From positions 816-64,815 of the IMG/VR virus record IMGVR_UViG_3300022682_000066: 64,000 nt of DNA; one strand, given 5' to 3'. Positions 42,777 through 62,570 of this stretch are shown here, one piece after another. The first letter of the stretch is position 1. Each line of letters begins with the position of its first letter. A program made the translations under genes and the position numbers. The notes below the pieces were generated by a model. The model had not been told where the DNA came from. It worked only from the letters and a program-made list of their open reading frames with translations, and did no database searches. This DNA is from a virus. Lineage: Duplodnaviria > Caudoviricetes.

Positions 42777-43691
42777 TTATTTGGAAACCCTACCGCATAG
42801 TGGGCACGGGGCCCCTTCCAATGCGGTGTGTAATTCTTCTTCAGCGGAAGCGATACGTTTTTTGTGATTTGCAATCTCTTCTTCTAGGTCTGTGATTCGA
42901 AGACTTGCCAGATGCAGTTCTTGAATTTGTTTACGGCACGTTTCTAGTGTGTGGTATTGCTTTAGTGCCGTATCTACCAATGCTTCTAGGGCGTTTGGGA
43001 ATTTCTTTCGTGCGGATCGTAATAGGGTTTCTTGTTCCTGCAGGTACTGTGTTGCCTGATACAATTGGGCGGCTTTACTATGCAAACCCTGCACTCGTTT
43101 CTGGTGTGACTCGGCCTTTGCCATTTTCATGTCAAGTTTGTCTAGCCCGTCGTAACGAGTAAGTGTTTCTTCAAGATACTCTATTTGGCTGTCATTCGCC
43201 CGTATATTGGATTGCGTCTCCCGCACTTGCCCGCTCACTGTACTAATGGCGTGATCGATTATGTCGAGATTGGCGATGTTATTGAGTTCCTTTGCGACTT
43301 GTCCCGGTGTTTTTGAAAGTAAGAAGGCCGGGTCCCCTTGGAACAGAAAGTTGAGTCGGTCGAGTCGCAGGGTGTTTCGAATTTCATCCGGTACGCCTCT
43401 ACCAAACGATTTGAATTGCTCTTTGTTGAGTGTGTAATAATTTGCCTTGTCTGTGCGTACACGACGGAGGACATCCCCTTCTTCCGTTTTGATAGTAACC
43501 GAGGTGCGCCCTCCCCAAGAACTGCGAAACGCATCTCCAGCAGGTTCGTTGAAAACAAGCCAACGCAAAGCACGGATAATTGCAGTTTTTCCTGCATCGG
43601 AGGGACCTACTATGACGTTGACCCCTTCGTCAAGTTCGATGTCTAGCTTTTTATGAGCCTGGAAGTTGCGAATGGAGATGCTTTCGAACAT
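42777..43691 (-). CDS. SbcC/Rad50 N-terminal half ending in a Zn hook
   Basis: IRNFQAH, GPSDAGKT Walker A, coiled coil, terminal CPLCG. Confidence 0.88.
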   Translation of the reverse strand: MFESISIRNFQAHKKLDIELDEGVNVIVGPSDAGKTAIIRALRWLVFNEPAGDAFRSSWGGRTSVTIKTEEGDVLRRVRTDKANYYTLNKEQFKSFGRGVPDEIRNTLRLDRLNFLFQGDPAFLLSKTPGQVAKELNNIANLDIIDHAISTVSGQVRETQSNIRANDSQIEYLEETLTRYDGLDKLDMKMAKAESHQKRVQGLHSKAAQLYQATQYLQEQETLLRSARKKFPNALEALVDTALKQYHTLETCRKQIQELHLASLRITDLEEEIANHKKRIASAEEELHTALEGAPCPLCGRVSK

Positions 43692-44107
43692 CAGCCCTTC
43701 CTCCGAACGACACGGCGCTGCTTTGGCCCTCCCAATGCAAGGCGGCTTTCTTCTGCGAGCCGGGTTGCTCTTGCAGTTGCAGTTCGTTTTTCCTCAGCCT
43801 TTTTTCGAGCCTCATGTCCGGCTTTGATTGCTTTTTGGCGTATTTTCTCGAAGTCAGAAGAGATGCTCCCGTCAACAGTCCAGATGGGCATCCAATGACT
43901 AATGTGCCGATCGTATGAAAGAGCGTGCGGCTTGTGGAAGGCGTCTTTTCCAAGTTCCGTTTGGGCGTGGAGCCTGGCGAGGCAAGATGTCCAGATGTAG
44001 ATTCGTTTTGTATGATGATTAAAGACCAAGATGTCTTCTTCAGTTGCTGGCGGCAACTTATCCTTAATGCGAATCCACATCTTCACAAAAAGCGGCTTCC
44101 GCTTCAT
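43691..44107 (-). CDS. hypothetical protein
   Basis: WIRIKDKLP...ISHWMP (DUF551-like); basic C-terminus. Confidence 0.6.
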   Translation of the reverse strand: MKRKPLFVKMWIRIKDKLPPATEEDILVFNHHTKRIYIWTSCLARLHAQTELGKDAFHKPHALSYDRHISHWMPIWTVDGSISSDFEKIRQKAIKAGHEARKKAEEKRTATARATRLAEESRLALGGPKQRRVVRRKG

Positions 44108-44649
44108 TAGTCAACCCCCATATGAATACGCCGGGCCTTTTCAGCCATGAGAGCAGCATCAGCTCGTCCGTCTTTCCACCCACCCTTCGGACCTGAGAAT
44201 TGCTGACGGTTATCAGGCCACATTCGAAAGACCGCAACTTTGGCTCTAGTTTTGGCGTCGGGGCCGTCGCTGCGAACAACCAGTCCCTTTTGCCAGCTTT
44301 GTGGTGCGAGAAGTTGGTACGGAATTCGCAGTATGGTAAGCAGGCAGTGCCAGATACCACAGTTCTGTCCAAAGGTGAACATGGATTTCGCCCCGCGGGT
44401 TTGTGCTTGACCGAATTTGTTGATTGCCGGTCGGGGTATGACACGTTCAAGAACAGCGAAGACGATATCGTATTGAGCGCGCCACTGTAAGAGTTCGTGG
44501 TAGATTTCCAGCGGATCGTTTGTGCGGGGCCAGTCGTATAGAAAGAGATCCGCGCCTGGGACCAAAAGGCATGCGGCGCCGGACTTGCCGGGGTCTATTC
44601 CCACAAAGGCTTCCGGTTTGATTTTTCGTCTTACCTTTCTTGCACTCAT
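44107..44649 (-). CDS. RuvC-like Holliday junction resolvase
   Basis: VGIDPGKSGA, VLE, SMFTFG, PQSWQK, DGRADAALMA. Confidence 0.85.
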   Translation of the reverse strand: MSARKVRRKIKPEAFVGIDPGKSGAACLLVPGADLFLYDWPRTNDPLEIYHELLQWRAQYDIVFAVLERVIPRPAINKFGQAQTRGAKSMFTFGQNCGIWHCLLTILRIPYQLLAPQSWQKGLVVRSDGPDAKTRAKVAVFRMWPDNRQQFSGPKGGWKDGRADAALMAEKARRIHMGVD

Positions 44650-45794
44650 TTGAACCTCCCGGGTCTTCCGGAAAGCAGGCTGTTTTCGACGTCTGTCCAA
44701 GCTGTTTGGGCTACCTGCTGAAGTTTGCGGTGTAGTCCTTTGGATTCGATATAGTTGATCAATTGATCGCGAGTGGCTTCCACTTTCAATTCTTTTGCAC
44801 GAATCTTTTGTTTCGTTTTGTGCCACCACTTGGACTTGAGCAGGTAGTCGATAATCGAGCCAACATCATCAAGACCCGGCCGATCGTAGAAAATATCGAA
44901 CTCGACTGTACGGATTTTCCCAGTGATGGAGTTTTTATCCATTTCCACTTTCGTTGTGACACCGATCTTGTATTTGATGTTCCGCTTGGTTTTGGTCTTG
45001 GTTTGGACTTTGTGCAGAACAGGACGTATATGACTGGCAAAGAATGGCGCGTTGCCCCCGCTGGTGCGCCACTGCTTGGCAAACGCTTGCCCTCCGATAT
45101 TCGTTCTGAGTTGTTGGACGATGATTACGAGACTCTGAGTATCTTTCACCTTCCCTTTAATCAATCGGAGCACTCGGCCGATGATACCGGCCTTGCGTCC
45201 GGCAAATGCTTCAGCGACCTTCTTTGCGGCATCATCCGATTTGATCCGGGCCATTGCTGCGGCTTGTTCTTTGTCGAGCTCTTCTCGTGTGGTGAGAACA
45301 TCTAAAGAGTCGCAGATGTAGATAAAGGGCTTCCCGGCTTTCGTGAGTGTCTTGATATTGTCGCCCAGGTCTTCGACGGTATCGGAAATACCCAGTGGCG
45401 GGTCTGAAATACGCTTTGCCAGACGCTTCCCGAATAGATAAGGAATATCGAATTCTTGGCGCCGTTCGATATCATCGAAAATCAAGGCATAATCCTTGAA
45501 CCGTTTTTCTTGAGCACATGCCGCAAGAGTGGAAAGACAAAGAAAGGTCTTGCCGCTTGCCGAAGCTCCTGGCAAGGTAACGATGTTGCCCAGGGGCCAG
45601 CCGCCCGCTATCCGATCAGAACAAGCGAGATTCAGCAGAGTGGATCCGGTCGGGGCTAACGTATCGGGAGAAACCTCCCGAGGCGTTTCTGGCCGATGTG
45701 AGCGTTTCTGTATCGCTTCGGCTACGTCCGCCGGGGAGGTCTTTCGGACGACCTTTCTATCCGATTTGCGGGCGACTGCCCTGCGCCTGGTCAT
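44646..45794 (-). CDS. recA: RecA/UvsX recombinase
   Basis: TGSTLLN, GASASGKT, DSLD, QLRTNIG, TSGGNA.FFAS. Confidence 0.9.
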   Translation of the reverse strand: MTRRRAVARKSDRKVVRKTSPADVAEAIQKRSHRPETPREVSPDTLAPTGSTLLNLACSDRIAGGWPLGNIVTLPGASASGKTFLCLSTLAACAQEKRFKDYALIFDDIERRQEFDIPYLFGKRLAKRISDPPLGISDTVEDLGDNIKTLTKAGKPFIYICDSLDVLTTREELDKEQAAAMARIKSDDAAKKVAEAFAGRKAGIIGRVLRLIKGKVKDTQSLVIIVQQLRTNIGGQAFAKQWRTSGGNAPFFASHIRPVLHKVQTKTKTKRNIKYKIGVTTKVEMDKNSITGKIRTVEFDIFYDRPGLDDVGSIIDYLLKSKWWHKTKQKIRAKELKVEATRDQLINYIESKGLHRKLQQVAQTAWTDVENSLLSGRPGRFK

Positions 45795-45990
45795 TCAGGA
45801 ACTCCTTGTATTTGGTCTTTTCGATATAAAACCGCCCACGCGGGACCGGTTGAAAGACCATATCGGGTCTCGCTTTCGCCCAAGTCCGGACCCATCCGAG
45901 AAATGTGGGACGGGCCACGTAGATGTTGAGTTGTTCTTCAAGCATCCGTTGGGCTTCATTGGTGTCGATGCGTTCTGTTTTGCCTGCCAT
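45757..45990 (-). CDS. small DNA-binding (excisionase-like HTH) protein
   Basis: IDTNEA..L..VARPTFLGW...GRFYI. Confidence 0.5.
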   Translation of the reverse strand: MAGKTERIDTNEAQRMLEEQLNIYVARPTFLGWVRTWAKARPDMVFQPVPRGRFYIEKTKYKEFLNDQAQGSRPQIG

Positions 45991-46029: not shown

Positions 46030-46037
46030 ATTGCGAT

Positions 46038-47339
46038 CTAAACGCCTTCCTTGGCGTCCGAGCAGGCAGCCCAGGTTTCTTCGTCACATTCGTTGCAGTC
46101 GTCAACTTCGTCCGTGTCGGCGCCGAACTTGTGACCGTAGGGGCATTTTCCCTTCTTGCCCTTCGAGGGCTTCGAGGCCTTCTTGCCCTTCTTGCCCTTC
46201 GTGGTCTTCTTGCCCTTCGTGGTCTTCTTGCCCTTCTTCGGCTTTTTGGGAGGTTCGGGTTCCTCGTCTTCGTCGTCCTCGTCGTCGTCGAGATCCTCGT
46301 CCTCGTCCTCGTCGTCGTCGAGATCCTCGTCGAAGTCGTCCTCCTCCTCGTCGTCCTCCTCCTCGTCGTCCTCCTCCTCGTCGTCTTCGTCGTCGTCGTC
46401 TTCGTCGTCGAGATCCTCGTCGTCCTCGTCGTCGAGATCTTCGTATTCCTCGTCGTCCTCGTCGTCGAGATCTTCGTCGTCGAGATCCTCGTCCTCGTCT
46501 TCGTCAGACTCGGGGATTTCGAAGAACATTTTTTCGAGGTCCTTGTACGATTCGATTCGGAGAGCTGTGCTCAGGTCGAACACTTCTTCGAGGATTTCGT
46601 CGTCCAGGGGTTCGCGGCGTTTGGCGAAGTCGATTCGGTTGACATCCCAGAACGAGCCGAACGAGCTGGTCTCCTCGACGAACCGACAGTTGAGATCGAA
46701 GCCCTTGGTGTCCGGGAGGTAGAAACTCGCCCAGAATTCGTCGCCTTCCTGGATTTCCATGTCCAGCTGTTTGCCGAAAAGGTGGTAGCTGGCATCCCAG
46801 AGGAAGACCTTCTCCGACTTGTGGTCGTAGATGAAGTAGAGTTCGCGGTCCTTCTGGCGAATATCGGAGATCAAGGACTTGTTCTCGGCGTAGTCCTGCT
46901 TGAGCCGATTGACTTCTTCACAAATCGGGCAGGGTTTGCCGACCGATTGGAGGCAAACGACCTTCCGGTTTTGGGGGCCGATATTGGCGTGCTGCATGAA
47001 CGATCGACGATACCAAAGCTGACCCGGCTCGATACCGTCCGGATGGTTGGATTCTTCGACGATGTAGGGAAGGACGCTGAACTTGGTCCGCTCTCGGGGC
47101 TTCCAGACCTCCATATCCGAGACGAGGGTCCAGCTGCCGCTTCGTTCCCGTTTCCGAGCCGCAGCCCGTTCACGAGCTCGATTGGCTGCGTCCTTCCGTG
47201 CAGTCTTGGAAGCCGTTTGCTTGATGCGTTCTGCAACCGACGCTTTTTTCTTTTTGCTGGTCTTGCTTGCCTTGGGCCGGGTCTTCTTGCTGCCGTCGGC
47301 TTTGTTCGTCTTCTTCGTTCCCTTCTTTCCCTTTGCCAT
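46038..47339 (-). CDS. gp32-like single-stranded DNA-binding protein with long acidic tract
   Basis: H.NIG...VVCLQSVGKPCPICE Zn motif; ~75-residue D/E tract; Lys-rich flanks. Confidence 0.78.
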   Translation of the reverse strand: MAKGKKGTKKTNKADGSKKTRPKASKTSKKKKASVAERIKQTASKTARKDAANRARERAAARKRERSGSWTLVSDMEVWKPRERTKFSVLPYIVEESNHPDGIEPGQLWYRRSFMQHANIGPQNRKVVCLQSVGKPCPICEEVNRLKQDYAENKSLISDIRQKDRELYFIYDHKSEKVFLWDASYHLFGKQLDMEIQEGDEFWASFYLPDTKGFDLNCRFVEETSSFGSFWDVNRIDFAKRREPLDDEILEEVFDLSTALRIESYKDLEKMFFEIPESDEDEDEDLDDEDLDDEDDEEYEDLDDEDDEDLDDEDDDDEDDEEEDDEEEDDEEEDDFDEDLDDDEDEDEDLDDDEDDEDEEPEPPKKPKKGKKTTKGKKTTKGKKGKKASKPSKGKKGKCPYGHKFGADTDEVDDCNECDEETWAACSDAKEGV

Positions 47340-47364: not shown

Positions 47365-47490
47365 TTACCGTCCTAATTTGGACCTATGCCAGGCATATGA
47401 TACGAGTCGGGTTGCGGCATACAACCAGAACAAGGCGTACCAACTGCCCACAAACCAGTCGATTACACAGTATCCAAAGAAATCAGGCAC
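47365..47490 (-). CDS. 41-aa hydrophobic peptide (not in ORF track)
   Basis: GTG overlapping the end of the upstream gene, AAGGAGG RBS; MPDFFGYCVIDWFVGSWYALFWLYAATRLV... Confidence 0.5.
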   Translation of the reverse strand: MPDFFGYCVIDWFVGSWYALFWLYAATRLVSYAWHRSKLGR

Positions 47491-48019
47491 GAGTCACAGT
47501 CCTCCTTTTCGCCGCAGCCTTTTTGGATTTTTCCACCACGGCCTTGTGTAATGCCTGTTGAGCCTTTTCCGAGAAACGTATTTCTTCAGGCAGGTTTCTG
47601 GGCTCCTTTGGCTTCGCAAAGTATTCTTGGTTCATGAGAAGAACGAGGTTCTCAAGTGCTGCCTTGCGCTGGTGAAATGCGAAGACGCCCCCGTCGAGAA
47701 GGTCCAAAATGAATTCAGCTTGGATTTGACGCTCCTTCGCTTTGCGGTACTCGGGGTGGGCCCGGACCCAGGCATCCACGTTGGGCCCTGTGGGGTTGAC
47801 TCCGATAAGATCTGCACCACCCCGGCCAGCCTTAAGCACGAGTTCTGAACGAGTGGTTTTCACTCGTTCGTGCATTCGCTTGGCTGTTTTGGCGGCGAGA
47901 GCCTTCATTCGGGAATACTTCTGGAATAGTTGTGGTTGCAGCGCCCACTCCACATCGAGTGCTTCTGTGTCGATGCTCAAATCCTCGTCGTATTGACGTT
48001 CAATGTCTTTCTGGTGCAT
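47483..48019 (-). CDS. UvsY-like recombination mediator
   Basis: DLSID..ALD.EW..QP..F.KYS helical protein adjacent to SSB. Confidence 0.55.
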   Translation of the reverse strand: MHQKDIERQYDEDLSIDTEALDVEWALQPQLFQKYSRMKALAAKTAKRMHERVKTTRSELVLKAGRGGADLIGVNPTGPNVDAWVRAHPEYRKAKERQIQAEFILDLLDGGVFAFHQRKAALENLVLLMNQEYFAKPKEPRNLPEEIRFSEKAQQALHKAVVEKSKKAAAKRRTVTRA

Positions 48020-49003: not shown

Positions 49004-50401
49004 TTACTGGATCGGGTATTCTTTCGCGGTGTTCCACGAACCATTGACAGGACCCACATCGGCTTCGACTTCTAAAGGCACCTTGATCCACTTCCAAGCC
49101 TTGGGCAGGTCCTCTGTCATCACGCGCTGTGCAGTCCGTAATACGTGATCCACTTCGTCGGGGTGAAAATCGAAAACGATCGAGTCGTGAATTTGCCCGA
49201 TAAGTAGCGTCTTCCATCGTTCCCGAGTTGCAATTTGGGTCAATCGGATGAATGACCAAAGCAGCATGTGAAATGCGCTGCCTTGCACCGCGAAGTTAAT
49301 CACTTGGTTTCGCTTCATGAATCCCTTGAACATGAACCCGGTTAGCGATTGGAATTGTCCGTGTTTCAAGTAATTACGATACCAGGTGTTGCGCCAATTG
49401 TTGTAGACCGGGAATCGTTCGTTCCAGAAACGATGTTCGACCTCTGCCATATGGTCTTCAAAGTCTAATTGAGTGTGGATACCCTGTGTCGCAAGATGCT
49501 CGGGTAGTAAGATACCATCAGAGGTTTTAAGGTTGTCCAAGTGGATCATTGCCCACATATTTTCAGCGATGCTTTTGTAGTAGTCTCCGTAGAAGGCCGG
49601 AAAGACGAATCCGTTCTTACCACAGTGACGAAGGGTCTTATAGCAGCCAGTGCCTTTTGGACCCAGTTGTTCTTCTGTGAGATGATAACATTCCATGGCC
49701 ATATCGCGATGCATATCACGATTCGGATTTGTGAGTTCATCATACATCGCTGGATCTAGATGATAACAGTATGCCGCGCGGATTTCCGCACCGGAGAAGT
49801 CGACTTCCCCTAGTAATCGATCATGCCGCGGTATAAGTGACCGACGAACAATATTCATAATCTCTTTGATGCGTTTGGGAAAGTTGTGGAAGTTGGGATC
49901 GAACGAACTGGAACGGAAGGTTTGTACTGTATTGAGTGCGAAGCTTGGATGGATAAACCATTGATCCCCTTGTTGCACAGCTTCACGAATGATAGACGCA
50001 AGAAACGTCCCTTTTGCTTTTTGTAAGCGATCCACAGCGATCAAATCGTCAATCTCGGGGAGTCCTAAAGCCTCGAGCGCATTTTGGCTTGTAGAGGGGT
50101 TGCCGTTTTCCGTGAAAACTTTGGCCTCGTGCCCCATTCTTTTGTAGATTATGTCCGCGAGCTGGTGGTTGCTATCCCAGTTCATAGATGTTCCGTAATA
50201 TTTCCGCCACAGCTTCGCGAGTTTCGTGTCTAGCAGACGTTCTCGTCGTCGCCGAATCTGTCTTGTAAGGTGTTTATCCTTGGCAAGGCAATAGTCCATA
50301 TCAATAGCGATGCCGTTTTCAGTTGCTTGCGATAAAGCAAGTGTACCTTCTTGGAGCAAGGTGTAGGCTGCTTTATGCTTTGGTCGAATATTTACTTTCA
50401 T
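49004..50401 (-). CDS. family A DNA polymerase, polymerase domain
   Basis: RSSSFDPNFHN, DFSGAEIR (motif A), R..GKN..F..FYG (B), QIHDS (C). Confidence 0.92.
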   Translation of the reverse strand: MKVNIRPKHKAAYTLLQEGTLALSQATENGIAIDMDYCLAKDKHLTRQIRRRRERLLDTKLAKLWRKYYGTSMNWDSNHQLADIIYKRMGHEAKVFTENGNPSTSQNALEALGLPEIDDLIAVDRLQKAKGTFLASIIREAVQQGDQWFIHPSFALNTVQTFRSSSFDPNFHNFPKRIKEIMNIVRRSLIPRHDRLLGEVDFSGAEIRAAYCYHLDPAMYDELTNPNRDMHRDMAMECYHLTEEQLGPKGTGCYKTLRHCGKNGFVFPAFYGDYYKSIAENMWAMIHLDNLKTSDGILLPEHLATQGIHTQLDFEDHMAEVEHRFWNERFPVYNNWRNTWYRNYLKHGQFQSLTGFMFKGFMKRNQVINFAVQGSAFHMLLWSFIRLTQIATRERWKTLLIGQIHDSIVFDFHPDEVDHVLRTAQRVMTEDLPKAWKWIKVPLEVEADVGPVNGSWNTAKEYPIQ

Positions 50402-51678
50402 TACGACATCCTATGAATTCCTAGCTGTTTCATTTGTAGCAAGGCGAGTTTCATTTCGTAGATACTATCCAGCCCGTTGTAGGTAAGCAGTTCTTTGCGT
50501 CCCGGAGGGGTGGACACGAGTTCGCGTAACTTGTTGAATGCGTTTGCCCCGCTCTTTTTTGCAGCTTGTGGAGGTGATTCGATCCATTGCTTCATGTGAG
50601 AATCGTAGTCGACCACCCCAAAGTTGATATACGCTTGGACTTTGAGACTCGTTATTTTGGGTCGGTTATCTATCATATGGGCTGCGAGTATGGAATCCCA
50701 GGCCCAATTGTTGACGGTGCCTACTTTTGTGCGACTCCAGATATTCTCAAAACTAATGTTATGAGCTCCCTTGCCTACTGTTTTTGTAGCGAGCAATCGG
50801 CGTAATTCTTGTATCCATTGATCTTGTTTCGCAAATGTAAAGGCACAAGTCTCAAGATTTGGCTTTGTAAACGAAGCCGTTACAATTTGTTGACCGGGGG
50901 CATATGGGCGAAGTCCGGTGGTTTCCCAGTCAAATACAACGAATTCTTCTTGTAACGTACAAGTTTCGATAAAATGCTTGATGTCTTTTTGTTTTTGGGG
51001 CATCTGTATCAGGCCCTGTTCGTCTTCTGGTATTACCGGCGGCCCGTTAAGGATCGTCTTTATCGCATTATTGAGATCTTGTTGGAATAGAACTTCTACA
51101 ATTGGTTGTTTGTACCCTCGTTCGCTTTTGCTTCGTAGCACATACGCCGGGTCGTAGGTCGGGCAAAACCAAGCCTTGAGATCGCGATCAGGAATTGTGA
51201 AACCCCTCCATCGCGAAACCCCCATTACTCCATTGCGATCGCCTTTCCAACGATGTTGCAGAATTGATAGGATTGGGGCGTTTCCGAAAGTGATTATTCC
51301 GTGCGGCTTCAGTTTTCTGATTGTACGCCAAAGATTAGGGCGGCAGTACCCAATTTCTTCTTTGCTTGGTGTTTTACCTTTCCTTGTTTTGCAGATTACG
51401 GCGTAGGTGTGCCAACAATCCACGTCTATGTTGATACCAAGTTGGGACAGAGCCCGTTTTAAGAGCCGCCCGCCACCGTCGCAGACAGTCTTGTTTAGTT
51501 GATCCGCTTGTTTTCTTGGGGTCTCTCCCACGAGCAGAATCTTCTTACGGCCTTTGCCGTGGACTTCCATCTTTGGTGAGTTGCAATGCTTGTGAAGGTT
51601 ACAAGCGCCACAACCCGCGACTTTAGCTGCCGGGTCCGTTTGGACCGTGGTTTCCCCGTAATTGAAGAATCCTGTCAT
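50401..51678 (-). CDS. uracil-DNA-glycosylase-like + 3'-5' exonuclease domains of a split PolA
   Basis: CGACNL, LVGETP; FDWETTG, AHNISFE, YNGLDS. Confidence 0.85.
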   Translation of the reverse strand: MTGFFNYGETTVQTDPAAKVAGCGACNLHKHCNSPKMEVHGKGRKKILLVGETPRKQADQLNKTVCDGGGRLLKRALSQLGINIDVDCWHTYAVICKTRKGKTPSKEEIGYCRPNLWRTIRKLKPHGIITFGNAPILSILQHRWKGDRNGVMGVSRWRGFTIPDRDLKAWFCPTYDPAYVLRSKSERGYKQPIVEVLFQQDLNNAIKTILNGPPVIPEDEQGLIQMPQKQKDIKHFIETCTLQEEFVVFDWETTGLRPYAPGQQIVTASFTKPNLETCAFTFAKQDQWIQELRRLLATKTVGKGAHNISFENIWSRTKVGTVNNWAWDSILAAHMIDNRPKITSLKVQAYINFGVVDYDSHMKQWIESPPQAAKKSGANAFNKLRELVSTPPGRKELLTYNGLDSIYEMKLALLQMKQLGIHRMS

Positions 51679-52806: not shown

Positions 52807-52988
52807 TTCTTCCTCCTTGCACACCGCCGGGGGCGGGTCGTTTTCTTCATATTGTCGATCCTCCGCTTCGTACAGGAGGTGTAGAAGTAAGAGAGCAGCA
52901 CACCGCCGCACTCATGGTATTCCCCAAGCAGTTCTTTAGTGAGTAGATCCTCGGCATAGCAGCCATTACCGGCCAAGTAAACGATCAT
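52803..52988 (-). CDS. small protein resembling the N-terminal strands of TGT-like proteins
   Basis: MIVYLAG...VLLSYFY. Confidence 0.5.
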   Translation of the reverse strand: MIVYLAGNGCYAEDLLTKELLGEYHECGGVLLSYFYTSCTKRRIDNMKKTTRPRRCARRKK

Positions 52989-53853: not shown

Positions 53854-54874
53854 CGGGATAGATCTCCTTGAGCATATTCGGTATCGCTTGCTCGCCGGCT
53901 TTTTTCAGTTTATCCATCCCGTGCATGAGAAAGCGTTGGTATCGATGGTTGTCCGTTTCGTAAGCTGTTACAATTCGGAGGATCTTCTTCTTTAATTCAG
54001 TGAGTGTGTCGTATCGCATATCTGATGGATACATTTCCGGGTAAGACAGTCGATTCGGGACGAGCGGGATGCAACCGGAGAACCAGGCTTCTTGCATTGC
54101 GATTCCCCAGGTTTCTTGGACAGCACAAGAGACCGCGATAGCCGCCGTCCCCAGAAGAGCGTAGTATTGGCCCTTTGTCAGGCACACATTCTTGGTGTAG
54201 ACCCAGCGCCATTGTTTTGGTAGTTGTGGTCGGAGGGACTGCATCACCGTTTCAAATACGGTAGGTTGTTTTTCTTCATCCAGCCGGTGAGGGAACACAA
54301 TTACCGGTTCTCTCTGAAGGTGGGATTGGCTTTCGAGATTATCGGTATACAGCGGGAATCCGGTCACATGAGTATTTCTGCAGTAGCGTCTTCGTGTCAG
54401 AAGGGATTGATGGAACTTGGTTGCAAGAAAAATACCGTCGACTTCGTTGAACCAAGAAAGTTCACTGTTGAGTGCCCAGCGTTCCATCCCCTGCTTCGTG
54501 AGAAAATCGTGAGGATCGTAGGTACCGGCATGAAGGCAACCGTAGATCCGGAGATCCATGTTGAGCCCGTCTCGTATGTAGAACAGCATTTCGAGTCCTG
54601 GAAACCATAAATCGTGGAAAAGCAGTACGTCCTTGTTCTTGATACGCCCGTCATGAATCATCTGACAGATTTTCCGAAGCTGGGAGGCTTTGTAGGCGTT
54701 CGTCCCTACTACATCAAGAAATGCTCCGTGTTCGATTGTATCCCCGAGAGGCTCTCCTTCAATGAATTCGAAAGGAATTGGACGATTCGAAAGTTCCTTT
54801 TGAAACCAGGAAGCCCATTGTGCGGAGTAGCGTTCTTCGAGAGGTTCGATCGGAACCACGAATAGTTTACTCAT
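53840..54874 (-). CDS. GT-B glycosyltransferase
   Basis: FPHRLDEEKQP, QETWGIAMQEA (E-x7-E), PNRLSYPEM. Confidence 0.82.
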   Translation of the reverse strand: MSKLFVVPIEPLEERYSAQWASWFQKELSNRPIPFEFIEGEPLGDTIEHGAFLDVVGTNAYKASQLRKICQMIHDGRIKNKDVLLFHDLWFPGLEMLFYIRDGLNMDLRIYGCLHAGTYDPHDFLTKQGMERWALNSELSWFNEVDGIFLATKFHQSLLTRRRYCRNTHVTGFPLYTDNLESQSHLQREPVIVFPHRLDEEKQPTVFETVMQSLRPQLPKQWRWVYTKNVCLTKGQYYALLGTAAIAVSCAVQETWGIAMQEAWFSGCIPLVPNRLSYPEMYPSDMRYDTLTELKKKILRIVTAYETDNHRYQRFLMHGMDKLKKAGEQAIPNMLKEIYPDGRI

Positions 54875-56189
54875 TGCCGACCTCCTCGATCAACCCAAGT
54901 CGTGCTTGGATTGCGATTGATACTGCGGCATCTCCAGGACGATTTGATTCAAACACCACCTGCGACACTCGGACTGGGCGGGTGATCTCGAGTTGCGGGA
55001 CCTTGTAAAGGTTGTGATAGTAGTTAGCTGCGTGCTTGGAAATAGGCACAGAGCCTATTGATGGGCTGGTTTCTTGGATAGTGCAGTCGAGGAAGCTGTT
55101 CGGGAGATACGACGGTACGAGCCGCAGTGGACGGCTGGTGAGGAAAACGCCTTCTTTCTTCAATGCTTCGTAATCGGCTGTGCCATGGTACGGTTGAAAA
55201 AATTGCCCGAGTCCTCCCCAAGTCCCGTTGGTACGGATGCGACCATACAGCTCGTAGGGATCAAAGCCGTATTGCATGAGGAAGTCCCCGGTGGTTTTGA
55301 TTGTGTTGATCGTCTCACCGGGGAAGAATGTCATCGTCAGCCAAAAGATATCGACTGGGGATTCGTCAGCCAATTGATGGTACTTTTCGATGTGGGGCTT
55401 CCCCATACTGGCACCGAGATCCTCGTCCGCTGTTTCAAGGCCTACTTCGATCAGCCGTACGGTTTTGGAGAGGGTGTCCCCTCCGTATGTGTGAAGGTAT
55501 GAGAGGACTTTACTGACGCTGCCCAATGTGATGAAATTGAATTGGACATTGTACCTCTCGAGGAGCATTGCAGCATATTCGAGAATGGCATGTGCTTTAC
55601 TCGGTGAGAAGAAGAAATCTTCGTCGGTGAAATGGATATTGTAAACACCGGTCAGGGCACATTGCTTCAAGACGTCGTCGATCACTTCAAGATCGAGTTC
55701 GATTCGTCTGCGATTGGTGTTGACCGTTGTGGGACAGAACGCACAACCGCGGGGACAGCCGTAGGAGGTGAATAACGGGTATACCTGCCCTTCGTATTTT
55801 TTGAGGTGCATGTCGCAATCGCTCAAGAGCAGATATTTGAAAGATTGGTAATGGCGTGGGTAGGTTCGCATCCCCAGCAGGATGTCTTCGTCAGGTACGA
55901 TATATTTGTTGAACCCGCATTCATCGATCAGCGGGTAATATCCAAAGAAGTAGACTTCCTTATTCGGCAGGAATTTTTCCAGGATGCGGCACATCTCGAT
56001 CTGTGGGTAGGACCACAGCGCCACGTAAACCGGCTCCGTGTCCTCTACCGAGTCGAGTTGATCTAGTGTGAAGTTCTCGAAGAAATGGCTGAGTTCGCCG
56101 TTTTCCGTTGCAGCCCCCGCAAACAGATAGGGAAGGTAACAAAAGCTGCCTCTATTAAATTCTGGGCTGGTGGGATCGATGATAATCAT
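54867..56189 (-). CDS. radical SAM protein
   Basis: TSYGCPRGCAFC, FTDEDF, VGLET, FFPGET. Confidence 0.85.
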   Translation of the reverse strand: MIIIDPTSPEFNRGSFCYLPYLFAGAATENGELSHFFENFTLDQLDSVEDTEPVYVALWSYPQIEMCRILEKFLPNKEVYFFGYYPLIDECGFNKYIVPDEDILLGMRTYPRHYQSFKYLLLSDCDMHLKKYEGQVYPLFTSYGCPRGCAFCPTTVNTNRRRIELDLEVIDDVLKQCALTGVYNIHFTDEDFFFSPSKAHAILEYAAMLLERYNVQFNFITLGSVSKVLSYLHTYGGDTLSKTVRLIEVGLETADEDLGASMGKPHIEKYHQLADESPVDIFWLTMTFFPGETINTIKTTGDFLMQYGFDPYELYGRIRTNGTWGGLGQFFQPYHGTADYEALKKEGVFLTSRPLRLVPSYLPNSFLDCTIQETSPSIGSVPISKHAANYYHNLYKVPQLEITRPVRVSQVVFESNRPGDAAVSIAIQARLGLIEEVGNE

Positions 56190-56806: not shown

Positions 56807-57358
56807 TTACCTCAAAAGAGTGGTCATGAGTTCAGCACGAGCGGCTTGATCGGTCAAGAAAACACCCTTGAGGCTTTGGTACCCCATGATGCTGTGCTGT
56901 TTTTGGACACCACGGCAAGCCATACAGAGGTGTTTGGCTTCGAGGATACATGCGGCACCTTTGGGGCGTAAATGTTCCATCAATGCCTCTGTAACCTGCT
57001 CGGCAATGCGCTCTTGTATTTGCAGGCGGCGGGCGTAGATATCGAGGATACGTGCGAGCTTGGAGACGCCGATCACCCGTTTGTGAGGGATGTAGGCAAT
57101 TGAGGCCTGTCCGGTGAAGGGGAGCATGTGATGCTCACACATAGAGTAGAACTCGATATTCTTGAGATATACGAGTCCGGTGGCTTCCTTGCACTCAAAG
57201 GTTTTCAGTATTTTTGAAGGGCACTGTCGGTACCCTGCGTAAAGTTCGCCCCAGCTTCTGCGAACACGAGTTGGCGTTTCGATGAGGCCTTCCCGAGTAG
57301 GGTCTTCGCCGATTCGAAGGAGCATGGTACGAATGATTTCTTCTGATCTGATTGGCAT
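56807..57358 (-). CDS. folE: GTP cyclohydrolase I
   Basis: REGLIETP.RV, SMCEHHMLPF, GVSKLAR, RLQIQE, HLCMACRG. Confidence 0.96.
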   Translation of the reverse strand: MPIRSEEIIRTMLLRIGEDPTREGLIETPTRVRRSWGELYAGYRQCPSKILKTFECKEATGLVYLKNIEFYSMCEHHMLPFTGQASIAYIPHKRVIGVSKLARILDIYARRLQIQERIAEQVTEALMEHLRPKGAACILEAKHLCMACRGVQKQHSIMGYQSLKGVFLTDQAARAELMTTLLR

Positions 57359-57435: not shown

Positions 57436-58308
57436 TTAGGTGTTGGCCTTCTTGCCCAGGTTGTAGTAGATGGTGGCGCGCTTCTTCATGTAGGCTTCGT
57501 CTTCGACCCCGCGCTCCTTGTAGAGCTTGATGAAGTGGGCGATGACCTGCTTCTTGGATTTGCCGTCCTTGACCATCTTGACGGCCATCTGCTCGAAGGA
57601 TTCGCCCTTCTTGCCCCCGCCCCGGGCGGACTTGCCGGTACGCTTGGTGCCGGTGCTTTTCTTGACCTCGGGCTTGCCGACGATCTTCTGCATCTTGGCC
57701 TTGAGGTCCTTGGTGCCCTGCAGGCCCTTGAACTTGCTCAGGCCCTTGCGGAGACCCTTGAACTCGTCGTAGTCCTCGACGATAGCCTTGAGGTCGTCCA
57801 GCTTGCGGGTCGAGGCCACGTAGGCGGACAGATCGAGGTCGTCGTCCTCGTCGTCATCGTCGCCGCCGGCGCCGTCGTCGTCTTCGTCCTCGTCGGCGGC
57901 TTCGTCGTCGTCGGCGTCTTCGTCGTCTTCGTCGTCTTCGTCGTCCTCCTCGTCGTCGTCTTCGTCGTCGGCGTCTTCGTCGTCCTCGTCGTCGGGAGCC
58001 TCGGGCGCCTCGTCGTCGGGATCGTCGTCGCCGTCAGCTTCCGCCAGGTTGGCTTCGGGGTCGCAGCCCAGGGCGAGCAGCGTGGCCCAGGCTTCTTCGG
58101 AAAGGGCTTCCTCGTCGCTCGGGACGATCGCATGGAAGACTTCCTTGATTCCCTTGGCCAGTGTCTTGCTCTTGAGGTTCAGAGGGGGCTCGATGTCGAT
58201 GATCTCGTTGAGCTCCTTGCCGAGTGCGACCAACTCCTTGAGGGTGGGCTTCTTCGAACCGGAGCTCTTTTTCGGAGCCGCTTTCTTGGTCTGGGTCTTC
58301 TTCGCCAT
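57436..58308 (-). CDS. basic-acidic-basic low-complexity protein
   Basis: Lys-rich ends, ~55-residue D/E tract, strong codon bias, own promoter motif and terminator. Confidence 0.8.
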   Translation of the reverse strand: MAKKTQTKKAAPKKSSGSKKPTLKELVALGKELNEIIDIEPPLNLKSKTLAKGIKEVFHAIVPSDEEALSEEAWATLLALGCDPEANLAEADGDDDPDDEAPEAPDDEDDEDADDEDDDEEDDEDDEDDEDADDDEAADEDEDDDGAGGDDDDEDDDLDLSAYVASTRKLDDLKAIVEDYDEFKGLRKGLSKFKGLQGTKDLKAKMQKIVGKPEVKKSTGTKRTGKSARGGGKKGESFEQMAVKMVKDGKSKKQVIAHFIKLYKERGVEDEAYMKKRATIYYNLGKKANT

Positions 58309-58403: not shown

Positions 58404-59132
58404 TCACGCCACCCCGAGGATTTTGTGAATTTGCACATTGAGCACAAGATTGAGCCCTTCCAGTTCCTCCCACTGCCGAAGCAAAGTCTGAGGGATATAC
58501 CCTGTTTTGATTGCTTCCGTTTGACTGATTGCCCACCCGCAGCGAACTGAGTCGAAGGGGTACCGTTCCCGCATATCACTTATGAACTTCAGGGCGTGAA
58601 GGACATCGCTGTATTCGTGACACACCAACTTGACCCAGGAACCCAGGGGCAGATCAGGAAGAATGCGACCTACGAGTGACTCGTTAGTCGAGCCGGGAAG
58701 GCCTTCGCCGCTTCCCGGTAATTTGTGATCTACAACCCAGGTCACTTTGCTCCCGATACCCCATTTGCCGTGTGGAGGCTCAACGGTACCGTTGGTTTCG
58801 ATAATCACAGGACGATGCTGTTTGTCGGAAAGGTGAAAAACCACATCCCGCAATTCGTCCCAATTTTGCAGCAACGGTTCACCACCAGTGATGAGAATTG
58901 GTGTAGGATGCGCGAGCGGAAACGGTGCTGGGACTGATAATGCCGCTACTCGCTCGAGTATTTCGGCCACACCCATTTCCTTCCCCTGGTGGTTTCCAAG
59001 AGCCTCAATAGCGTCACAATAGTGACATCGCAGGTTGCACCCTTGGAAGCGGATGATGATGATTGGTTCGCCTTGCAGCACACCGCCGCCGACTTCTCCG
59101 CTGAAACTTCTGGAGATGTTATGAACCCGCAT
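58404..59132 (-). CDS. queE: 7-carboxy-7-deazaguanine synthase
   Basis: IRFQGCNLRCHYCD, ITGGEPLLQ, IETNG, QIHK. Confidence 0.9.
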   Translation of the reverse strand: MRVHNISRSFSGEVGGGVLQGEPIIIIRFQGCNLRCHYCDAIEALGNHQGKEMGVAEILERVAALSVPAPFPLAHPTPILITGGEPLLQNWDELRDVVFHLSDKQHRPVIIETNGTVEPPHGKWGIGSKVTWVVDHKLPGSGEGLPGSTNESLVGRILPDLPLGSWVKLVCHEYSDVLHALKFISDMRERYPFDSVRCGWAISQTEAIKTGYIPQTLLRQWEELEGLNLVLNVQIHKILGVA

Positions 59133-59135: not shown

Positions 59136-59516
59136 TTACCCCCGTTTGTACTCGACCCAGGAGGTCGGGGTTTCGGTGATGCGGATGCGGACCACCGCGT
59201 TGTGTAGCCGCTCGTCCAACGTGTTGTGCATCCAGCGGACGAGATTTTCGCAGGTAGGCGGTTGAAATTGGTCCGGGAGGATGTCGTTGAGATGCTGGTG
59301 ATCAATAAGCTCAACGACTTCATTCACCACGGCTTTTATTTCCGAGAAATCCATGATCATTCCCGGGTAACATTGGTGAATTTTGTCCTTGGACACGGGA
59401 TGTTCGACTTCAACTTCCATTCGGGCGTTGTGCCCGTGCAGGCGACGGCACTTGCCTTTGTAGTCGGGCAAAGAGTGCGAGTAACAGAAATCGAAAACCT
59501 TGGTTGCAGTGAGCAT
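59136..59516 (-). CDS. queD: 6-carboxy-5,6,7,8-tetrahydropterin synthase
   Basis: H.L..Y.GKCRRLHGH, MDF, DHQHLN, PTCEN, ETP. Confidence 0.93.
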   Translation of the reverse strand: MLTATKVFDFCYSHSLPDYKGKCRRLHGHNARMEVEVEHPVSKDKIHQCYPGMIMDFSEIKAVVNEVVELIDHQHLNDILPDQFQPPTCENLVRWMHNTLDERLHNAVVRIRITETPTSWVEYKRG

Positions 59517-59533
59517 AATAGACCTCCTGCCCC

Positions 59534-59561
59534 ATTATACGGGGCATCTGTTGGTTTTCTA
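59534..59561 (-). promoter_or_regulatory. putative phage promoter, TAGAAA-N14-CGTATAAT
   Basis: copy of the four-fold conserved motif, directly upstream of the queD RBS. Confidence 0.72.
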
Positions 59562-61103
59562 GAAGCTTGTTATGATTGGTCGTCCTGTTTTTATGCTCTG
59601 TAGGACGGTTACAAAGTTGGTGGAATTTTGGTCATCTTCGCGCACCACAATAGCATTGACGCGCATTAAGCAGCGTTTCTTTTCTTGCGGTGTTTGATTG
59701 AGCCCGTACATTGCAGTCACATGACCTAGCTTTCGCTTGTCCTCGCTGAAGTTCCGCATGGAGAGCATCCATCGATCGTAGCTATCAGCATCTGCTTGAG
59801 TTGGTGCAATAACCAGTGCATTTCGAACCTGGGATAGATTTCGCAACGCCATCCAACGATCGTTTTCTTCTTCCCTTTTCTTACTGCGGGTGGTTTCCGG
59901 CGCAAGGATATCCGCATAGTCTATCAGGATGACTTGCGGGACAAAGCCTTCTTCGGCTTCTAACCGCCTGCAAATAGCCTCGATGTCTTTGACCCTTACC
60001 GACCCCGTCGGATGGCAAGACAGGCGTAATTCTCCGCCAAGAGCGCGTTGGAATCTGGTGTTTAGGTCGATTGCCTCGTTAGCCGTGAGTGGTTCAATAA
60101 AAGCCCGCTCCCACCAGGAGATGCCCTCAAACTCGTGTGGGTGTCGTTGGCGGCAGTAAGTGCAGGGGTTGTAATGCTTCTCAGCTTCTTCAAAAGGCAT
60201 GTAGACTGGTTCATCACGATCGCCGTCTTCTACAATCTCGATTTCCCCTCGGCGTTGCGTTCGGGAACACTCGCCGGTCTGGTTCTTCCAGCAGTCCAGC
60301 ACGGGCACTAGCTGTTCACCGCAGAATTTCTCCCGATTGCTTCTTCCAGCAAAAGAGACGCTGAACCGTAAGGTTTGTTGAGGCTGGCTGAGATCGCCTG
60401 CTTGAACGAATAAGACCTTGCGCCTTGCTCTCAAAGCACGTTTGGCGTGCTCAATGAGCATCCATGTCTTACCGATTTTCTCTCTTCCGAGGAAGGAAAC
60501 AAACGAATCTCGGGTTAATTGGTCGTTCATAAAGTGCCCTAAGGCACCAGGTAGTTCGTAGAGTGGCTTTGGTTGGTTTTGAAACCCTTCCCGAATTGCT
60601 TGTTCGTCGGTTAATGGGTTGATCGGTCGTCCCGTGGCAGCGGTTACCTGCTTGAATTCTGTCCGAAGGGTTTCTGCTTCGTTGAGGTCGCCGTCTTCAA
60701 CAGCAATTTGAATTCGTTCGGATAGCAGTCGCAAATTGGTTAACTGGAGACGTTCCGACATCTGCTTCTGCAGGTAGCTGGCGTTGATCCCTTCCCCAGC
60801 GTTTTCAAATTCTTGACTCAACCCTGCAAGAAAATCGCCGAGGTCATCCGCAAGTTCTGGCGGCAGGGCGTCATATTGCGTTGCGTAGATGTCTTGAATC
60901 GCTTTGCCTGGTGCTGCTTGATGTTCTTCGTAGTAGTCCACACACCAACGAAGAACCCGCTGCAAGAACTCCCCTTCTACGAGCTCCTCAGAAAAAGACG
61001 GAACGAGTCCCGATAGAAACTCGTTACTCACAATCGCGGCAGTAGCTACCCGGCGATCAAACATACCATCGTAGGTCCTGACTTTGAGATTGCGCTTCGC
61101 CAT
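59559..61103 (-). CDS. DnaB-like replicative helicase
   Basis: GREKIGKT, VILIDYADIL, PTQA, SEDKRK. Confidence 0.85.
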   Translation of the reverse strand: MAKRNLKVRTYDGMFDRRVATAAIVSNEFLSGLVPSFSEELVEGEFLQRVLRWCVDYYEEHQAAPGKAIQDIYATQYDALPPELADDLGDFLAGLSQEFENAGEGINASYLQKQMSERLQLTNLRLLSERIQIAVEDGDLNEAETLRTEFKQVTAATGRPINPLTDEQAIREGFQNQPKPLYELPGALGHFMNDQLTRDSFVSFLGREKIGKTWMLIEHAKRALRARRKVLFVQAGDLSQPQQTLRFSVSFAGRSNREKFCGEQLVPVLDCWKNQTGECSRTQRRGEIEIVEDGDRDEPVYMPFEEAEKHYNPCTYCRQRHPHEFEGISWWERAFIEPLTANEAIDLNTRFQRALGGELRLSCHPTGSVRVKDIEAICRRLEAEEGFVPQVILIDYADILAPETTRSKKREEENDRWMALRNLSQVRNALVIAPTQADADSYDRWMLSMRNFSEDKRKLGHVTAMYGLNQTPQEKKRCLMRVNAIVVREDDQNSTNFVTVLQSIKTGRPIITSF

Positions 61104-61634
61104 TTAGGTATCCTCAGGCTTGAGTAGGACAGGCGTACACATCTGCCCTACTCGGCGGGCTAGCCGTTGTCCTGTGACATTTTGCAAGGCTTTGATTGCG
61201 TAATTGGTTGTGATGATTGTTTGACGTTGATCTCGGTATCTCCGGTCAATGATTAGGTCGAGTGTTTGAGTTGCCCACTCGGTGGTCTTGGTGTTCCCTA
61301 AATCATCCAACACGAGCAGCACCGTATTGGTATAACGATCGACGACATCCTTTTCTGTTGTCTCGGAATTAGGCGAATAGGACTGCCGGATCTCGAACAA
61401 AAGTTCGTTGACCGGTGTGAATAGACACGGTACGCTCAAATACCGTTCTTTGAACGTCATGAGTACCGCACAAGCAAGGTGGGTCTTCCCCACTCCGGGC
61501 GGGCCGTAGATGTAGAGTGAATCAGTTGGGCATACCTCCAAATCAAAATCTTCGAGGGAGGCGTCTACAAATTCAGCAGGTATGCCTGCTCGTTTGGCGA
61601 TTCGATACTTCTGCTCTTTATTCAGAAATGCCAT
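61104..61634 (-). CDS. DnaC/IstB-like helicase loader
   Basis: GPPGVGKTHLA, LVLDDLG, TIITTN. Confidence 0.9.
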   Translation of the reverse strand: MAFLNKEQKYRIAKRAGIPAEFVDASLEDFDLEVCPTDSLYIYGPPGVGKTHLACAVLMTFKERYLSVPCLFTPVNELLFEIRQSYSPNSETTEKDVVDRYTNTVLLVLDDLGNTKTTEWATQTLDLIIDRRYRDQRQTIITTNYAIKALQNVTGQRLARRVGQMCTPVLLKPEDT

Positions 61635-61637
61635 ATG

Positions 61638-62570
61638 CTAGACTCCTTTGGTGGCTGCCCGCCGACCACGTTTAACTGTGACCTTTCGTGTCTTGCGTTC
61701 GTAATCATCAAAGTAGTCGTCAGGAAGTGCTTCAGGATCACTATTCCGTTTCTTGGGGCGTACGGTGTCCCGGCCTTCCCACATGCCAAAGATAATTTCA
61801 AACGGAGTAGAATTGCCCTTGCTGGGACGTTTGCGGGAGAGGTAGTCGCCGGGACGAGTTCGCAACACTTCGGCCCAGCCGGGGAAATCAGAGTTGGGGT
61901 CGGGGGCTTGGTCAAGTATCCATTTCAGAGCAGCACGGACATCTGCTGGGGCATAGCCGTCTTCAAGAATTTGCTGGATAGCGATTGCACCCTTTTTGAT
62001 CTTTTGGGGTGCCTTTGGGTTGAGCTTCCCATAAAGCATTTGGCTCATGTTCATTGCAGAACCACATGGTTGGTTCCTATCTTCTTTCTTTTTAGTTTTA
62101 GTTAATTTAGTTTTATTATACAGTTGGCCCCTCCCGGCCGGACTAGTTCTCCCCATCCTGCCGGACTTGTCATCCCCATCCGGCCGGACTAGTTCTCCCC
62201 ATCCTGCCGGACTTGCTCTATGGCTCTTATGGTGGAGGTAAACCAGGATTTGTTCGTAATCGATTTTGAAGTGAATTCGAGCAGGTGTGCCTACTCGTTT
62301 GGTGAGGATCAGGTGAAGGTCTTTCAGTGTTTTGATTATCGTGCGTTGTGTTTTGTGTCCGATTCCCGTGTCTTTCAGCCGTGCTTGTTCCGTACGGTAA
62401 AACCAACCGTTGTGGTCGGTCAGATTTTCGTTGATGCTGATGAGGTATGAAAGAAAGAAAGCTGTTTCGGCCCCAAGTTTGCGAACCAATACCTTGTTGA
62501 CTGCCCAGTACCCGTCTGCGGATAGTGCTGCTCGACCGATTTCAGCGAGTGCTTGTTCTCTGCTCGACAT
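61638..62570 (-). CDS. replication initiator protein (lambda O-like architecture)
   Basis: N-terminal wHTH (GWFYRT...TG), internal iterons, upstream of DnaC/DnaB. Confidence 0.8.
   Translation of the reverse strand: MSSREQALAEIGRAALSADGYWAVNKVLVRKLGAETAFFLSYLISINENLTDHNGWFYRTEQARLKDTGIGHKTQRTIIKTLKDLHLILTKRVGTPARIHFKIDYEQILVYLHHKSHRASPAGWGELVRPDGDDKSGRMGRTSPAGRGQLYNKTKLTKTKKKEDRNQPCGSAMNMSQMLYGKLNPKAPQKIKKGAIAIQQILEDGYAPADVRAALKWILDQAPDPNSDFPGWAEVLRTRPGDYLSRKRPSKGNSTPFEIIFGMWEGRDTVRPKKRNSDPEALPDDYFDDYERKTRKVTVKRGRRAATKGV
62128..62219. repeat. four tandem 23-bp iterons (probable origin)
   Basis: units at 62128, 62151, 62174, 62197 (CCCCATCC.GCCGGACT.GT..T), next to an A/T-rich tract at ~62080-62120. 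Confidence 0.85.

Follow-up and report, generated by a model that had tools for sequence, protein, structure and literature searches.

Why do so many proteins of a single phage begin or end in a short run of lysines and arginines? The question is raised by IMGVR_UViG_3300022682_000066, a 64,815-bp IMG/VR record of a tailed virus (Duplodnaviria; Caudoviricetes), of which we analyzed bases 816–64,815 (64,000 nucleotides, referred to here as the window). A reading of this stretch from its letters alone (hereafter the sequence-only reading) had noticed basic terminal tags of the form R/K-R/K-V/T-V-R-R on DNA-handling proteins, and had proposed that they act as a shared localization tag, binding DNA or the long acidic tracts of two proteins, a candidate SSB (single-stranded DNA-binding protein) encoded by open reading frame (ORF) 46038 and the product of ORF 57436, to assemble a replication and packaging compartment. 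We found that the tags are a lineage-wide trait of the recombination set (UvsY, gp32-like SSB, UvsX-like RecA and RuvC) of a large clade of siphophages with genomes of roughly 60–70 kb, and that their charge, but not their sequence, is kept.

All nine terminal peptides quoted in that reading are present in the sequence (Table 1), and the N-terminal tags are translated, each start lying 6–9 nt downstream of an AGGAG-type Shine-Dalgarno (SD) sequence. Mis-called starts are ruled out by this SD support and by the absence of alternative starts; in RecA, the next candidate start falls within the ATPase core. The tags lie outside the matched Pfam and PHROG domains, as had been claimed, with the matches starting at residue 47 in RecA (Pfam), 14 in RuvC (PHROG), 39 in TerS and 75 in the portal protein. 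We scored a terminus as basic when it carried at least five lysines or arginines in eight residues within 20 residues of the protein end. In a curated set of 79 genes (158 termini), 12 termini carried such a cluster: seven N ends (ORF 182, TerS, portal, ORF 17267, RuvC, RecA and ORF 46038) and five C ends (TerL, the tail-chaperone T part, ORF 43691, UvsY and primase). Interior 20-residue segments carried a cluster in 195 of 15,893 cases (1.2%), which predicts 1.9 termini, and the excess stood up to the shuffled control: 2000 within-protein shuffles gave a mean of 2.6 and a maximum of 9, and none reached 12.

A random control was drawn from IMG/VR viral contigs sampled by an arbitrary 14-mer; 80 loci were fetched, of which 61 (1176 genes) reached 8 kb and were kept, the 19 shorter ones being dropped. 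A simple gene caller recovered 74 of the 79 curated stops in the window and 52 of the 57 annotated stops in the cultured Vibrio phage SSP002. In the random loci, 51 of 2352 termini (2.2%) were basic vs. 0.83% of interior segments, and the window exceeded them (Fisher odds ratio 3.7, p=4e-4; N ends alone, p=6e-4). Phage proteins in general tend to have basic clusters at their ends, and the window lies in the upper range of this tendency.

The relatives carry the argument further. A RecA search returned hundreds of metagenomic homologs at 37–55% identity, nearly all with an N-terminal extension made up of a basic start and then a conserved helix. Of 119 homologs, we kept the 113 that start with methionine and contain the core motif; at a threshold of at least four K/R in eight residues, the N end was basic in 66 of these 113 and the C end in 94. 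The RecA/UvsX-like homologs P0002–P0120 also share a conserved C-terminal W-x2-I-E-x2-L-x-L-x-R-K-x-R-F/Y, at which the window RecA C-end (44646-44700) reads …SLLSGRPGRFK. A scan of viral contigs with the single RecA sequence found no relatives, and an alignment-based scan yielded 80 viral loci around RecA. Four complete relatives (G001–G004; 65–67 kb, with terminal repeats and a GC content of 40–55%) were available, G001 being the nearest. When the clade loci were restricted to the 60 that reach 8 kb, basic termini numbered 252 of 2576, as against 51 of 2352 in the random loci (p=4e-31), although the clade loci are replication and recombination neighborhoods and the comparison is not like for like.

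Within the clade, the trait is selective. Orthologs of UvsY were basic at the C end in 41 of 53 cases, and orthologs of the SSB at either end in 30 of 38; a basic end was found in 31 of 64 RecA and 4 of 9 RuvC orthologs. The corresponding counts were 1 of 55 for the clamp loader, 1 of 30 and 0 of 16 for the two halves of DNA polymerase A (PolA), 0 of 45 for SbcC, 2 of 28 for the clamp, 0 of 13 for DpdA and 0 of 6 for ThyX. The tags are thus not confined to the window, and orthologs of UvsY, SSB, RecA and RuvC across the clade carry tails; what does not survive is the idea that the tags mark DNA-handling proteins as a class, since polymerase, clamp, clamp loader and SbcC hardly ever have one. 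The tags on TerS, TerL, the portal protein and the tail chaperone were only patchily conserved, and it is plausible that those of packaging and tail proteins have separate roles; the packaging proteins, which had been placed under the same tag, have ordinary explanations of their own.

The cultured Vibrio phages of the genus Mardecavirus belong to the clade. SSP002/MAR10 has the clamp, polymerase, ThyX, clamp loader, UvsY-like, SSB-like, RecA, RuvC, SbcD and SbcC genes in synteny with the window, and SSP002 has polybasic ends on its UvsY-like protein (C), SSB-like protein (N and C), RecA (N), RuvC (C) and TerS (N). It differs in that its RecA is only about 26% identical to that of the window, its SSB tail is a mixed R/D/G tract where the window SSB has pure poly-D/E, and its RuvC tail sits at the opposite end. 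No close cultured phage was found in the phages collection searched, in which RecA identity reached at most 27%.

What is conserved in these tails is charge. The UvsY tails of orthologs read, for instance, KKKGRRRAPK, LVRRRRRK and KTRTRRRR. The RuvC tail is at the N end in the window, G004, L017, L029 and L049 and at the C end in L015 and SSP002, and the DUF551 protein (ORF 43691) has its tail at the C end in the window and at the N end in G001. Tags are arginine-rich in AT-rich relatives too, with R/(R+K) of 0.56–0.57 at 40–41% GC. Because the tails swap ends and conserve charge only, they fit an autonomous, composition-driven module. The proposed V/T-containing sequence, on the contrary, is not kept even in the nearest relative, and a single localization tag assembling a replication and packaging compartment finds no common sequence beyond charge to rest on. 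Nor are the tags LAST motifs in the strict sense: the LAST composition (five contiguous residues, three K/R and two S/T) had only 2 terminal matches vs. 10 in protein interiors, the terminal ones being SKKTR in the SSB (residues 17–21) and SKKSK in the tail chaperone, and it occurred in none of the RecA, RuvC, UvsY, portal, TerS and ORF 43691 tags.

Two of the tailed proteins could be identified by fold. ORF 46038 is, as proposed, an SSB with a long acidic tract: it has a gp32 fold and about 80 acidic-tract residues. The AlphaFold2 model of its core, from a 33-row alignment, has a predicted local distance difference test (pLDDT) score above 90, with residues 1–29 below 50, and Foldseek matched it to the T4 and RB69 gp32 cores 1gpc, 2a1k and 8gme (E 2.5e-7 to 1e-5, probability 1.0, template modeling (TM) score on the target 0.52–0.60). 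H117, C129, C137 and C140, invariant in the alignment of 33 SSB sequences, would form a structural zinc site of the His+3Cys type. No Pfam family matched at E≤0.01, and the sole PHROG match was a low-complexity one to an 'ATPase' family; we therefore call the protein gp32-like on the strength of its fold and zinc ligands, and not of any sequence family. Counted in blocks of 20 residues, its net charge is +7, +8 and +4 in the first three and -17 to -19 in those over residues 281–360, with about -72 for the acidic tract as a whole. The acidic-hydrophobic tip of the SSB-Ct type is absent, the window SSB ending in …SDAKEGV. Acidic ends were also seen elsewhere: the sliding clamp (51685-52806) has an acidic C-tail, …DADMDDNSF*, and DIPF, the tip of E. 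coli-type SSB, ends the clamp loaders of L049 and L059 and the SSB of L052 (…EDIPF). In the SSB orthologs of L041, L035 and L046, the disordered tails consist of repeats such as PAPRRRVVEEDA, which join an RRRVV element and an acidic run within one unit.

The UvsY-like protein was modeled at a pLDDT of 91 and matched T4 UvsY (4zwt, 4zwr and 4zwq; probability 1.0, TM score on the target 0.82–0.91). By sequence it scored 21.4 bits against Pfam PF11056 (gathering cut-off 22.8) and E 2.6e-7 against PHROG 231 'UvsY-like', a match that ends near residue 126–130 of 178; in the model, an additional C-terminal helix (residues 143–177) ends in the basic tail. The product of ORF 57436 does have the long acidic tract, of about 70 residues, that had been described. 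Its ortholog in G001 ends in PKKSKKK, and its only family assignment is PHROG 30618 (unknown function), with Pfam matching the acidic tract below threshold and Atlas matches below 0.8.

We propose that the tails may be nonspecific binders of polyanions, that is, of DNA and of the SSB acidic tract, with charge and position at a protein end under selection and the exact sequence free to vary, and this is the reading to which we incline, if only slightly. According to PMC3016280 and PMC12424627, UvsX and UvsY of T4 (as well as gp59 and others) bind the acidic C-domain of gp32, whose basic N-domain, with a KRKST ('LAST') motif, drives cooperativity. ORF 46038 resembles T4 gp32 in its core fold, its His+3Cys site, its basic N-domain and its acidic C-terminal region, and the UvsY-SSB-RecA gene neighborhood is likewise T4-like. 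The T4 proteins UvsX and UvsY, which bind the gp32 acidic domain, are the same ones that have basic tails in the clade. ORF 46038 differs from gp32 in that its acidic tract, about 80 near-pure D/E residues as compared with residues 254–301 given for the gp32 acidic domain in PMC12424627, leads on to a Lys-rich block and then a Cys-rich mini-domain, in that its likeness is one of fold with no Pfam family match, and in that its partners in the window carry terminal polybasic tails (PHROG 231 ends near residue 130 of 178 in the UvsY-like protein). Given a gp32-fold SSB with an acidic tract and the T4 precedent of UvsX and UvsY, it is reasonable for the tails to function by binding DNA or the acidic tract; K/R-rich low-complexity regions of prokaryotic DNA-binding proteins have been linked to nonspecific DNA binding (PMC6821194). 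In such a scheme, the tails would raise the local DNA affinity of each protein, and the same electrostatics could let UvsY, RecA and RuvC dock on the long SSB acidic tract; docking would gather them on SSB-coated single-stranded DNA, which they could then take over, aided in the hand-off. A complex prediction of SSB residues 270–433 with UvsY (score 0.00, mark 0.32, controls not run) gave no verdict and is not used here.

Several observations weigh against polyanion binding as a full account. While the enrichment held against random loci, it did not against lambda, SPP1 and T7 taken together (15/326 vs. 12/158 in the window, p=0.21; 3/96, 9/146 and 3/84 termini singly); C ends alone were not significantly enriched over random loci (p=0.085), and 4 of 57 random loci reached the window's fraction. 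The UvsY tail is modeled as the end of a confident helix, not as a floppy tail. Polymerase and helicase loader, which bind gp32 in T4, have no tails here. The proposed link to SSB acidity is not borne out by covariation with the basicity of the partner tails (Spearman 0.26, p=0.13, n=35 for UvsY; 0.13, p=0.43, n=37 for RecA). The genome-specific enrichment of valine described below is left unexplained by a generic polyanion-binding model. Finally, arginine codons in the clusters are enriched in AGA/AGG (15/45 vs. 172/1286, p=7e-4), and two C-terminal tags overlap downstream SD sites, the TerL tail codons AAG CGG AGG AAT containing that of the portal gene and the ORF 43691 tail codons CGG AGG AAG GGC that of the next gene; part of the signal therefore lies at the nucleotide level, at gene boundaries.

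This last point could be extended to most of the trait: purine-rich gene boundaries in tightly packed operons, with ribosome-binding sites inside upstream C-termini and unstructured A/G-rich starts, would encode lysine and arginine as a by-product, and the remaining tags would have unrelated local roles and share no function. The general terminal enrichment (2.2% vs. 0.83% interior in random loci; 9/146 in SPP1), the AGA/AGG excess, the two overlaps and an SD-like AGG AGG in UvsY all speak for it. Constraints common to all genes, however, cannot explain why conservation in the clade selects families (UvsY as against the clamp loader), the tails survive changes of gene order, GC content and protein end, and most arginine codons in the tags are CGN (30/45), so that we consider this account improbable. 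An origin of the tags in a DNA repeat or motif was also ruled out, the codons differing between tags and GTC/GTT being ordinary valine codons; genome-wide, GTCGT and GTCGTC occur at about 1.5 and about 2.5 times the frequency expected from base composition, respectively. An alternative closer to polyanion binding takes the poly-Asp/Glu tracts of the SSB (278–360) and of the 57436 protein (88–158) as an electrostatic scaffold or condensate, into which proteins of recombination, replication and packaging would partition by way of their tails, as client signals. The two acidic tracts, 70–80 residues long and each between basic blocks, would suit it, as would G001, whose SSB is equally acidic (38 D/E in its most acidic 40-residue stretch) and which has both an ortholog of the 57436 protein and tails on portal and TerS; E. 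coli SSB, too, is reportedly condensate-forming. Yet polymerase, clamp, clamp loader, SbcCD, primase (where the tail is weak) and the DNA-modification enzymes are without tails, relatives with only moderately acidic SSBs (14–16 D/E in 40) have as many or more of them (15 of 180 termini basic in G004), SSB acidity and tail basicity do not covary, and the window and G001 are not independent, and we judge the scaffold unlikely. No shell protein was named among the PHROG annotations of the 83 ORFs scanned, a scan in which no search was aimed at shell proteins, and a replication and packaging compartment is possible but unsupported.

The valine-containing form of the tags raises a further alternative, in which BB-V(V)-BB (B, basic; KRVVRR, RRVVRR, RKVVRK, RKVRR and KRTVRR) is a genuine short linear motif that a single co-evolving phage or host factor reads, which would explain why each relative has a spacer flavor of its own. 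The motif occurred at 5 termini and at no internal site in the 79 window proteins, a post hoc count for a motif taken from these data, and once in 1176 random-locus and twice in 1288 clade-locus proteins. Valine made up 11 of the 44 non-basic cluster residues vs. 7.4% of the proteome (p=3e-4; about 5e-3 corrected for 18 residue types), and spacer composition varied by genome (chi-square p=2e-4, with low expected counts), being V in the window, G/P in G001 (tags of the type MARRKxPK) and T/P in G004. RRRVV-type repeats also occur within the SSB tails of L041 and L035. Against a specific receptor, we note that the motif was defined on the same data with small counts, that no candidate receptor was found, that no examined ortholog keeps the motif except for a KKTVRRK in G001, and that slippage-like low-complexity drift could yield genome flavors without any receptor; the valine form could thus reflect receptor co-evolution or mere drift, and a dedicated reader strikes us as quite unlikely. 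The broadest version would make the whole clade an electrostatic client-scaffold system for recombination-dependent replication, with the poly-Asp/Glu SSB (up to about 80 residues) and, here, a second acidic protein as hub or condensate, the movable tails as a client code and the spacer flavor (valine here) tuning recognition; we regard this as a speculative extension with little chance of holding in full. We return to nonspecific polyanion binding as the account to which we incline.

The individual tags differ in strength and conservation (Table 1). The initiator has RKTRKVTVKRGRR seven residues before its C-terminal end, which is weak by our metric (four K/R in eight), and its basic tail is not kept in the G001 ortholog; orthologs of the DnaB-like helicase are modestly basic at the N end. 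Of three portal orthologs, only that of G001 has a basic N end; TerS has one in G001, G002 and Vibrio phage SSP002. The TerL tail is basic in G001 and weak or absent in G002–G004, and the T part of the tail chaperone is basic in the G001 and G002 orthologs; an SPP1 ORF ending at the annotated tail chaperone stop is basic-ended as well. The 109-aa ORF that starts at 182 extends past the window start to genome base 668 and matched no Pfam or PHROG family, and its G001 ortholog has a polybasic start too, which includes the KKTVRRK mentioned above.

Table 1. Positions in the window of the tags, acidic proteins and other features; an asterisk marks a stop codon.
Feature	Location (strand)	Element	Element location	Remarks
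RecA/UvsX-like	44646-45794 (-)	N-terminal tag MTRRRAVARKSDRKVVRK	45741..45794	SD AAGGAG
RuvC-like resolvase	44107-44649 (-)	N-terminal tag MSARKVRRKIKP (begins MSARKVRRK)	44614..44649	SD GGGAGG
DUF551 protein, ORF 43691	43691-44107 (-)	C-terminal tag KQRRVVRRKG*	43694..43723	
UvsY-like	47483-48019 (-)	C-terminal tail …KSKKAAAKRRTVTRA (end KRRTVTRA)	47486..47530	
DnaB-like helicase	59559-61103 (-)	N-terminal tag MAKRNLKVR	61077..61103	Weak, 4 K/R in 8
Replication initiator	61638-62570 (-)	C-terminal tail ERKTRKVTVKRGRRAATKGV*	61641..61700	
Portal	8927-10360 (+)	N-terminal tag M/V-STKRVVRRRN	8927..8959	GTG start, SD GGAGG
TerS	start 6595 (+)	N-terminal basic arm MSKKRRVNRKAASGPRRAKPHR (MSKKRRVNRK)	6595..6660	SD AAAGGAG; Pfam Terminase_2
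TerL	(+)	C-terminal basic tail KSRGAKRKAKRRNRK*	8883..8927	
109-aa ORF	start 182 (-)	N-terminal tag MARSVTRKPKKRTVRRGHKRKVRRMKRN (KKRTVRR..RKVRR)	99..182	
143-aa head-module ORF	(+)	N-terminal basic stretch MAKTDRKEYRLKRGRYNRRM	17267..17326	Conserved in G001
Tail-assembly-chaperone T part	(+)	C-terminal polybasic tail SKKSKKPRRVRVAKKRGKK*	23599..23655	
gp32-like SSB, 433 aa	46038..47339 (-)	Basic N-domain (residues 1-65)	47145-47339	Zn-OB core
gp32-like SSB, C-terminal half		Acidic tract (residues 278-360)	46260-46508	
gp32-like SSB, C-terminal half		Lys-rich block (residues 363-398)	46146-46253	Also a Cys-rich mini-domain
57436 protein, 290 aa	57436..58308 (-)	Basic N-end	58246-58308	Lys-rich C-half
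57436 protein		Acidic tract (residues 88-158)	57835-58047	
7-deazaguanine cluster ORFs, including neighbors	52966-53853, 53840-54874, 54867-56189, 56807-57358, 58404-59132, 59136-59516			
Ser/Thr-tailed virion proteins	16196-17230, 19182-19622, 28900-33192, 33207-33923, 33932-36322	C-termini		

PHROG scans of the genome, which has a direct terminal repeat of 99 bp in the record, gave a siphovirus gene set. A plus-strand block at 6.6–39 kb holds the packaging, head and tail genes, and a minus-strand block at 39–64 kb those of replication and recombination: primase, initiator, a DnaC-like loader, the DnaB-like helicase, 7-deazaguanine genes, clamp, a split PolA, clamp loader, the UvsY-like protein, ORF 46038, the RecA/UvsX-like protein, the RuvC-like protein, the DUF551 protein and SbcCD-like genes. 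PolA consists of two adjoining ORFs (49004-50401 and 50401-51678; 425 and 465 aa) with an ATGA overlap, and is one fused ORF of 820–890 aa in several relatives. The SbcCD-like nuclease also appears split, its ATPase into an N-terminal half (42777-43691) and a C-terminal half (40834-41424), with a metallophosphatase (41663-42562) and a short coiled-coil ORF (41421-41660) at the same locus; all of these pieces except the short coiled-coil ORF are kept in all four relatives. Among the replication genes lies a 7-deazaguanine DNA-modification set (DpdA/TGT-like, FolE, QueE-like and QueD-like), together with a radical-SAM protein and a glycosyltransferase-like protein to which no roles were assigned. 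In the structural block, a 724-codon open frame (15671-17845, -) runs antisense to the decoration, capsid and next genes with a high codon-model score; it has no family match, whereas the plus-strand genes do, and is probably a composition artefact.

Protein ends of another kind occur on the virion. Five virion proteins (major capsid, major tail, host-specificity protein and two fibers) end in Ser/Thr runs like …STTTTTS*, which is 5 of 79 proteins in the window vs. 1 of 1176 in the random viral loci, and a cluster of glycosyltransferase-like genes (19642-22805) lies within the structural block. G001 has both the S/T tails (capsid and tail tube) and the transferase genes, and both are absent from G002 and G004; in G003 no protein is S/T-tailed, and BLAST did not find the orthologs of capsid, tail tube and transferases there. 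This pattern suggests that the S/T tails and transferase genes provide O-glycosylation tags on the virion, as is reportedly the case for some mycobacteriophages.

How do the basic tails compare with known systems? Acidic SSB tails serve elsewhere as partner hubs, as in the DDDIPF end (SSB-Ct) of E. coli SSB, where, as proposed here, an acidic tail meets basic partner surfaces; the acidic C-terminal tail of T7 gp2.5 is likewise a partner-docking hub. The SSB-Ct systems differ in that the partner element is a folded pocket, here proposed to be a terminal polybasic tail, and in that the SDAKEGV end of the window SSB is unlike their acidic-hydrophobic tip. T4 UvsY is not known to have a polybasic tail. 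The Lys/Arg-rich tails of histone-like proteins, Ku and Streptomyces topoisomerase I, as covered in PMC6821194, are, as here, terminal, composition-driven and nonspecifically polycationic on DNA enzymes; those described there are of single proteins, whereas here a whole recombination set is tailed, conserved across a clade and encoded beside a hyper-acidic SSB. Polybasic tails on phage UvsY, RecA or RuvC were not described in the open-access literature that we searched, and no paper there mentioned both 'UvsY' and 'polybasic'.

Should the tails do no more than lend generic affinity for DNA, the finding would be an ordinary one. If, on the other hand, they dock on the SSB acidic tract, the clade would have a simple, charge-coded SSB "hub" that organizes recombination, and such docking would explain why the charge patterns of phage SSB tails vary so widely; the same design is present in cultured Vibrio phages, which makes it testable. 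For annotation, a short basic stretch extending a gene end in these phages is to be taken as genuine and conserved, and not trimmed off as if the start had been mis-called.

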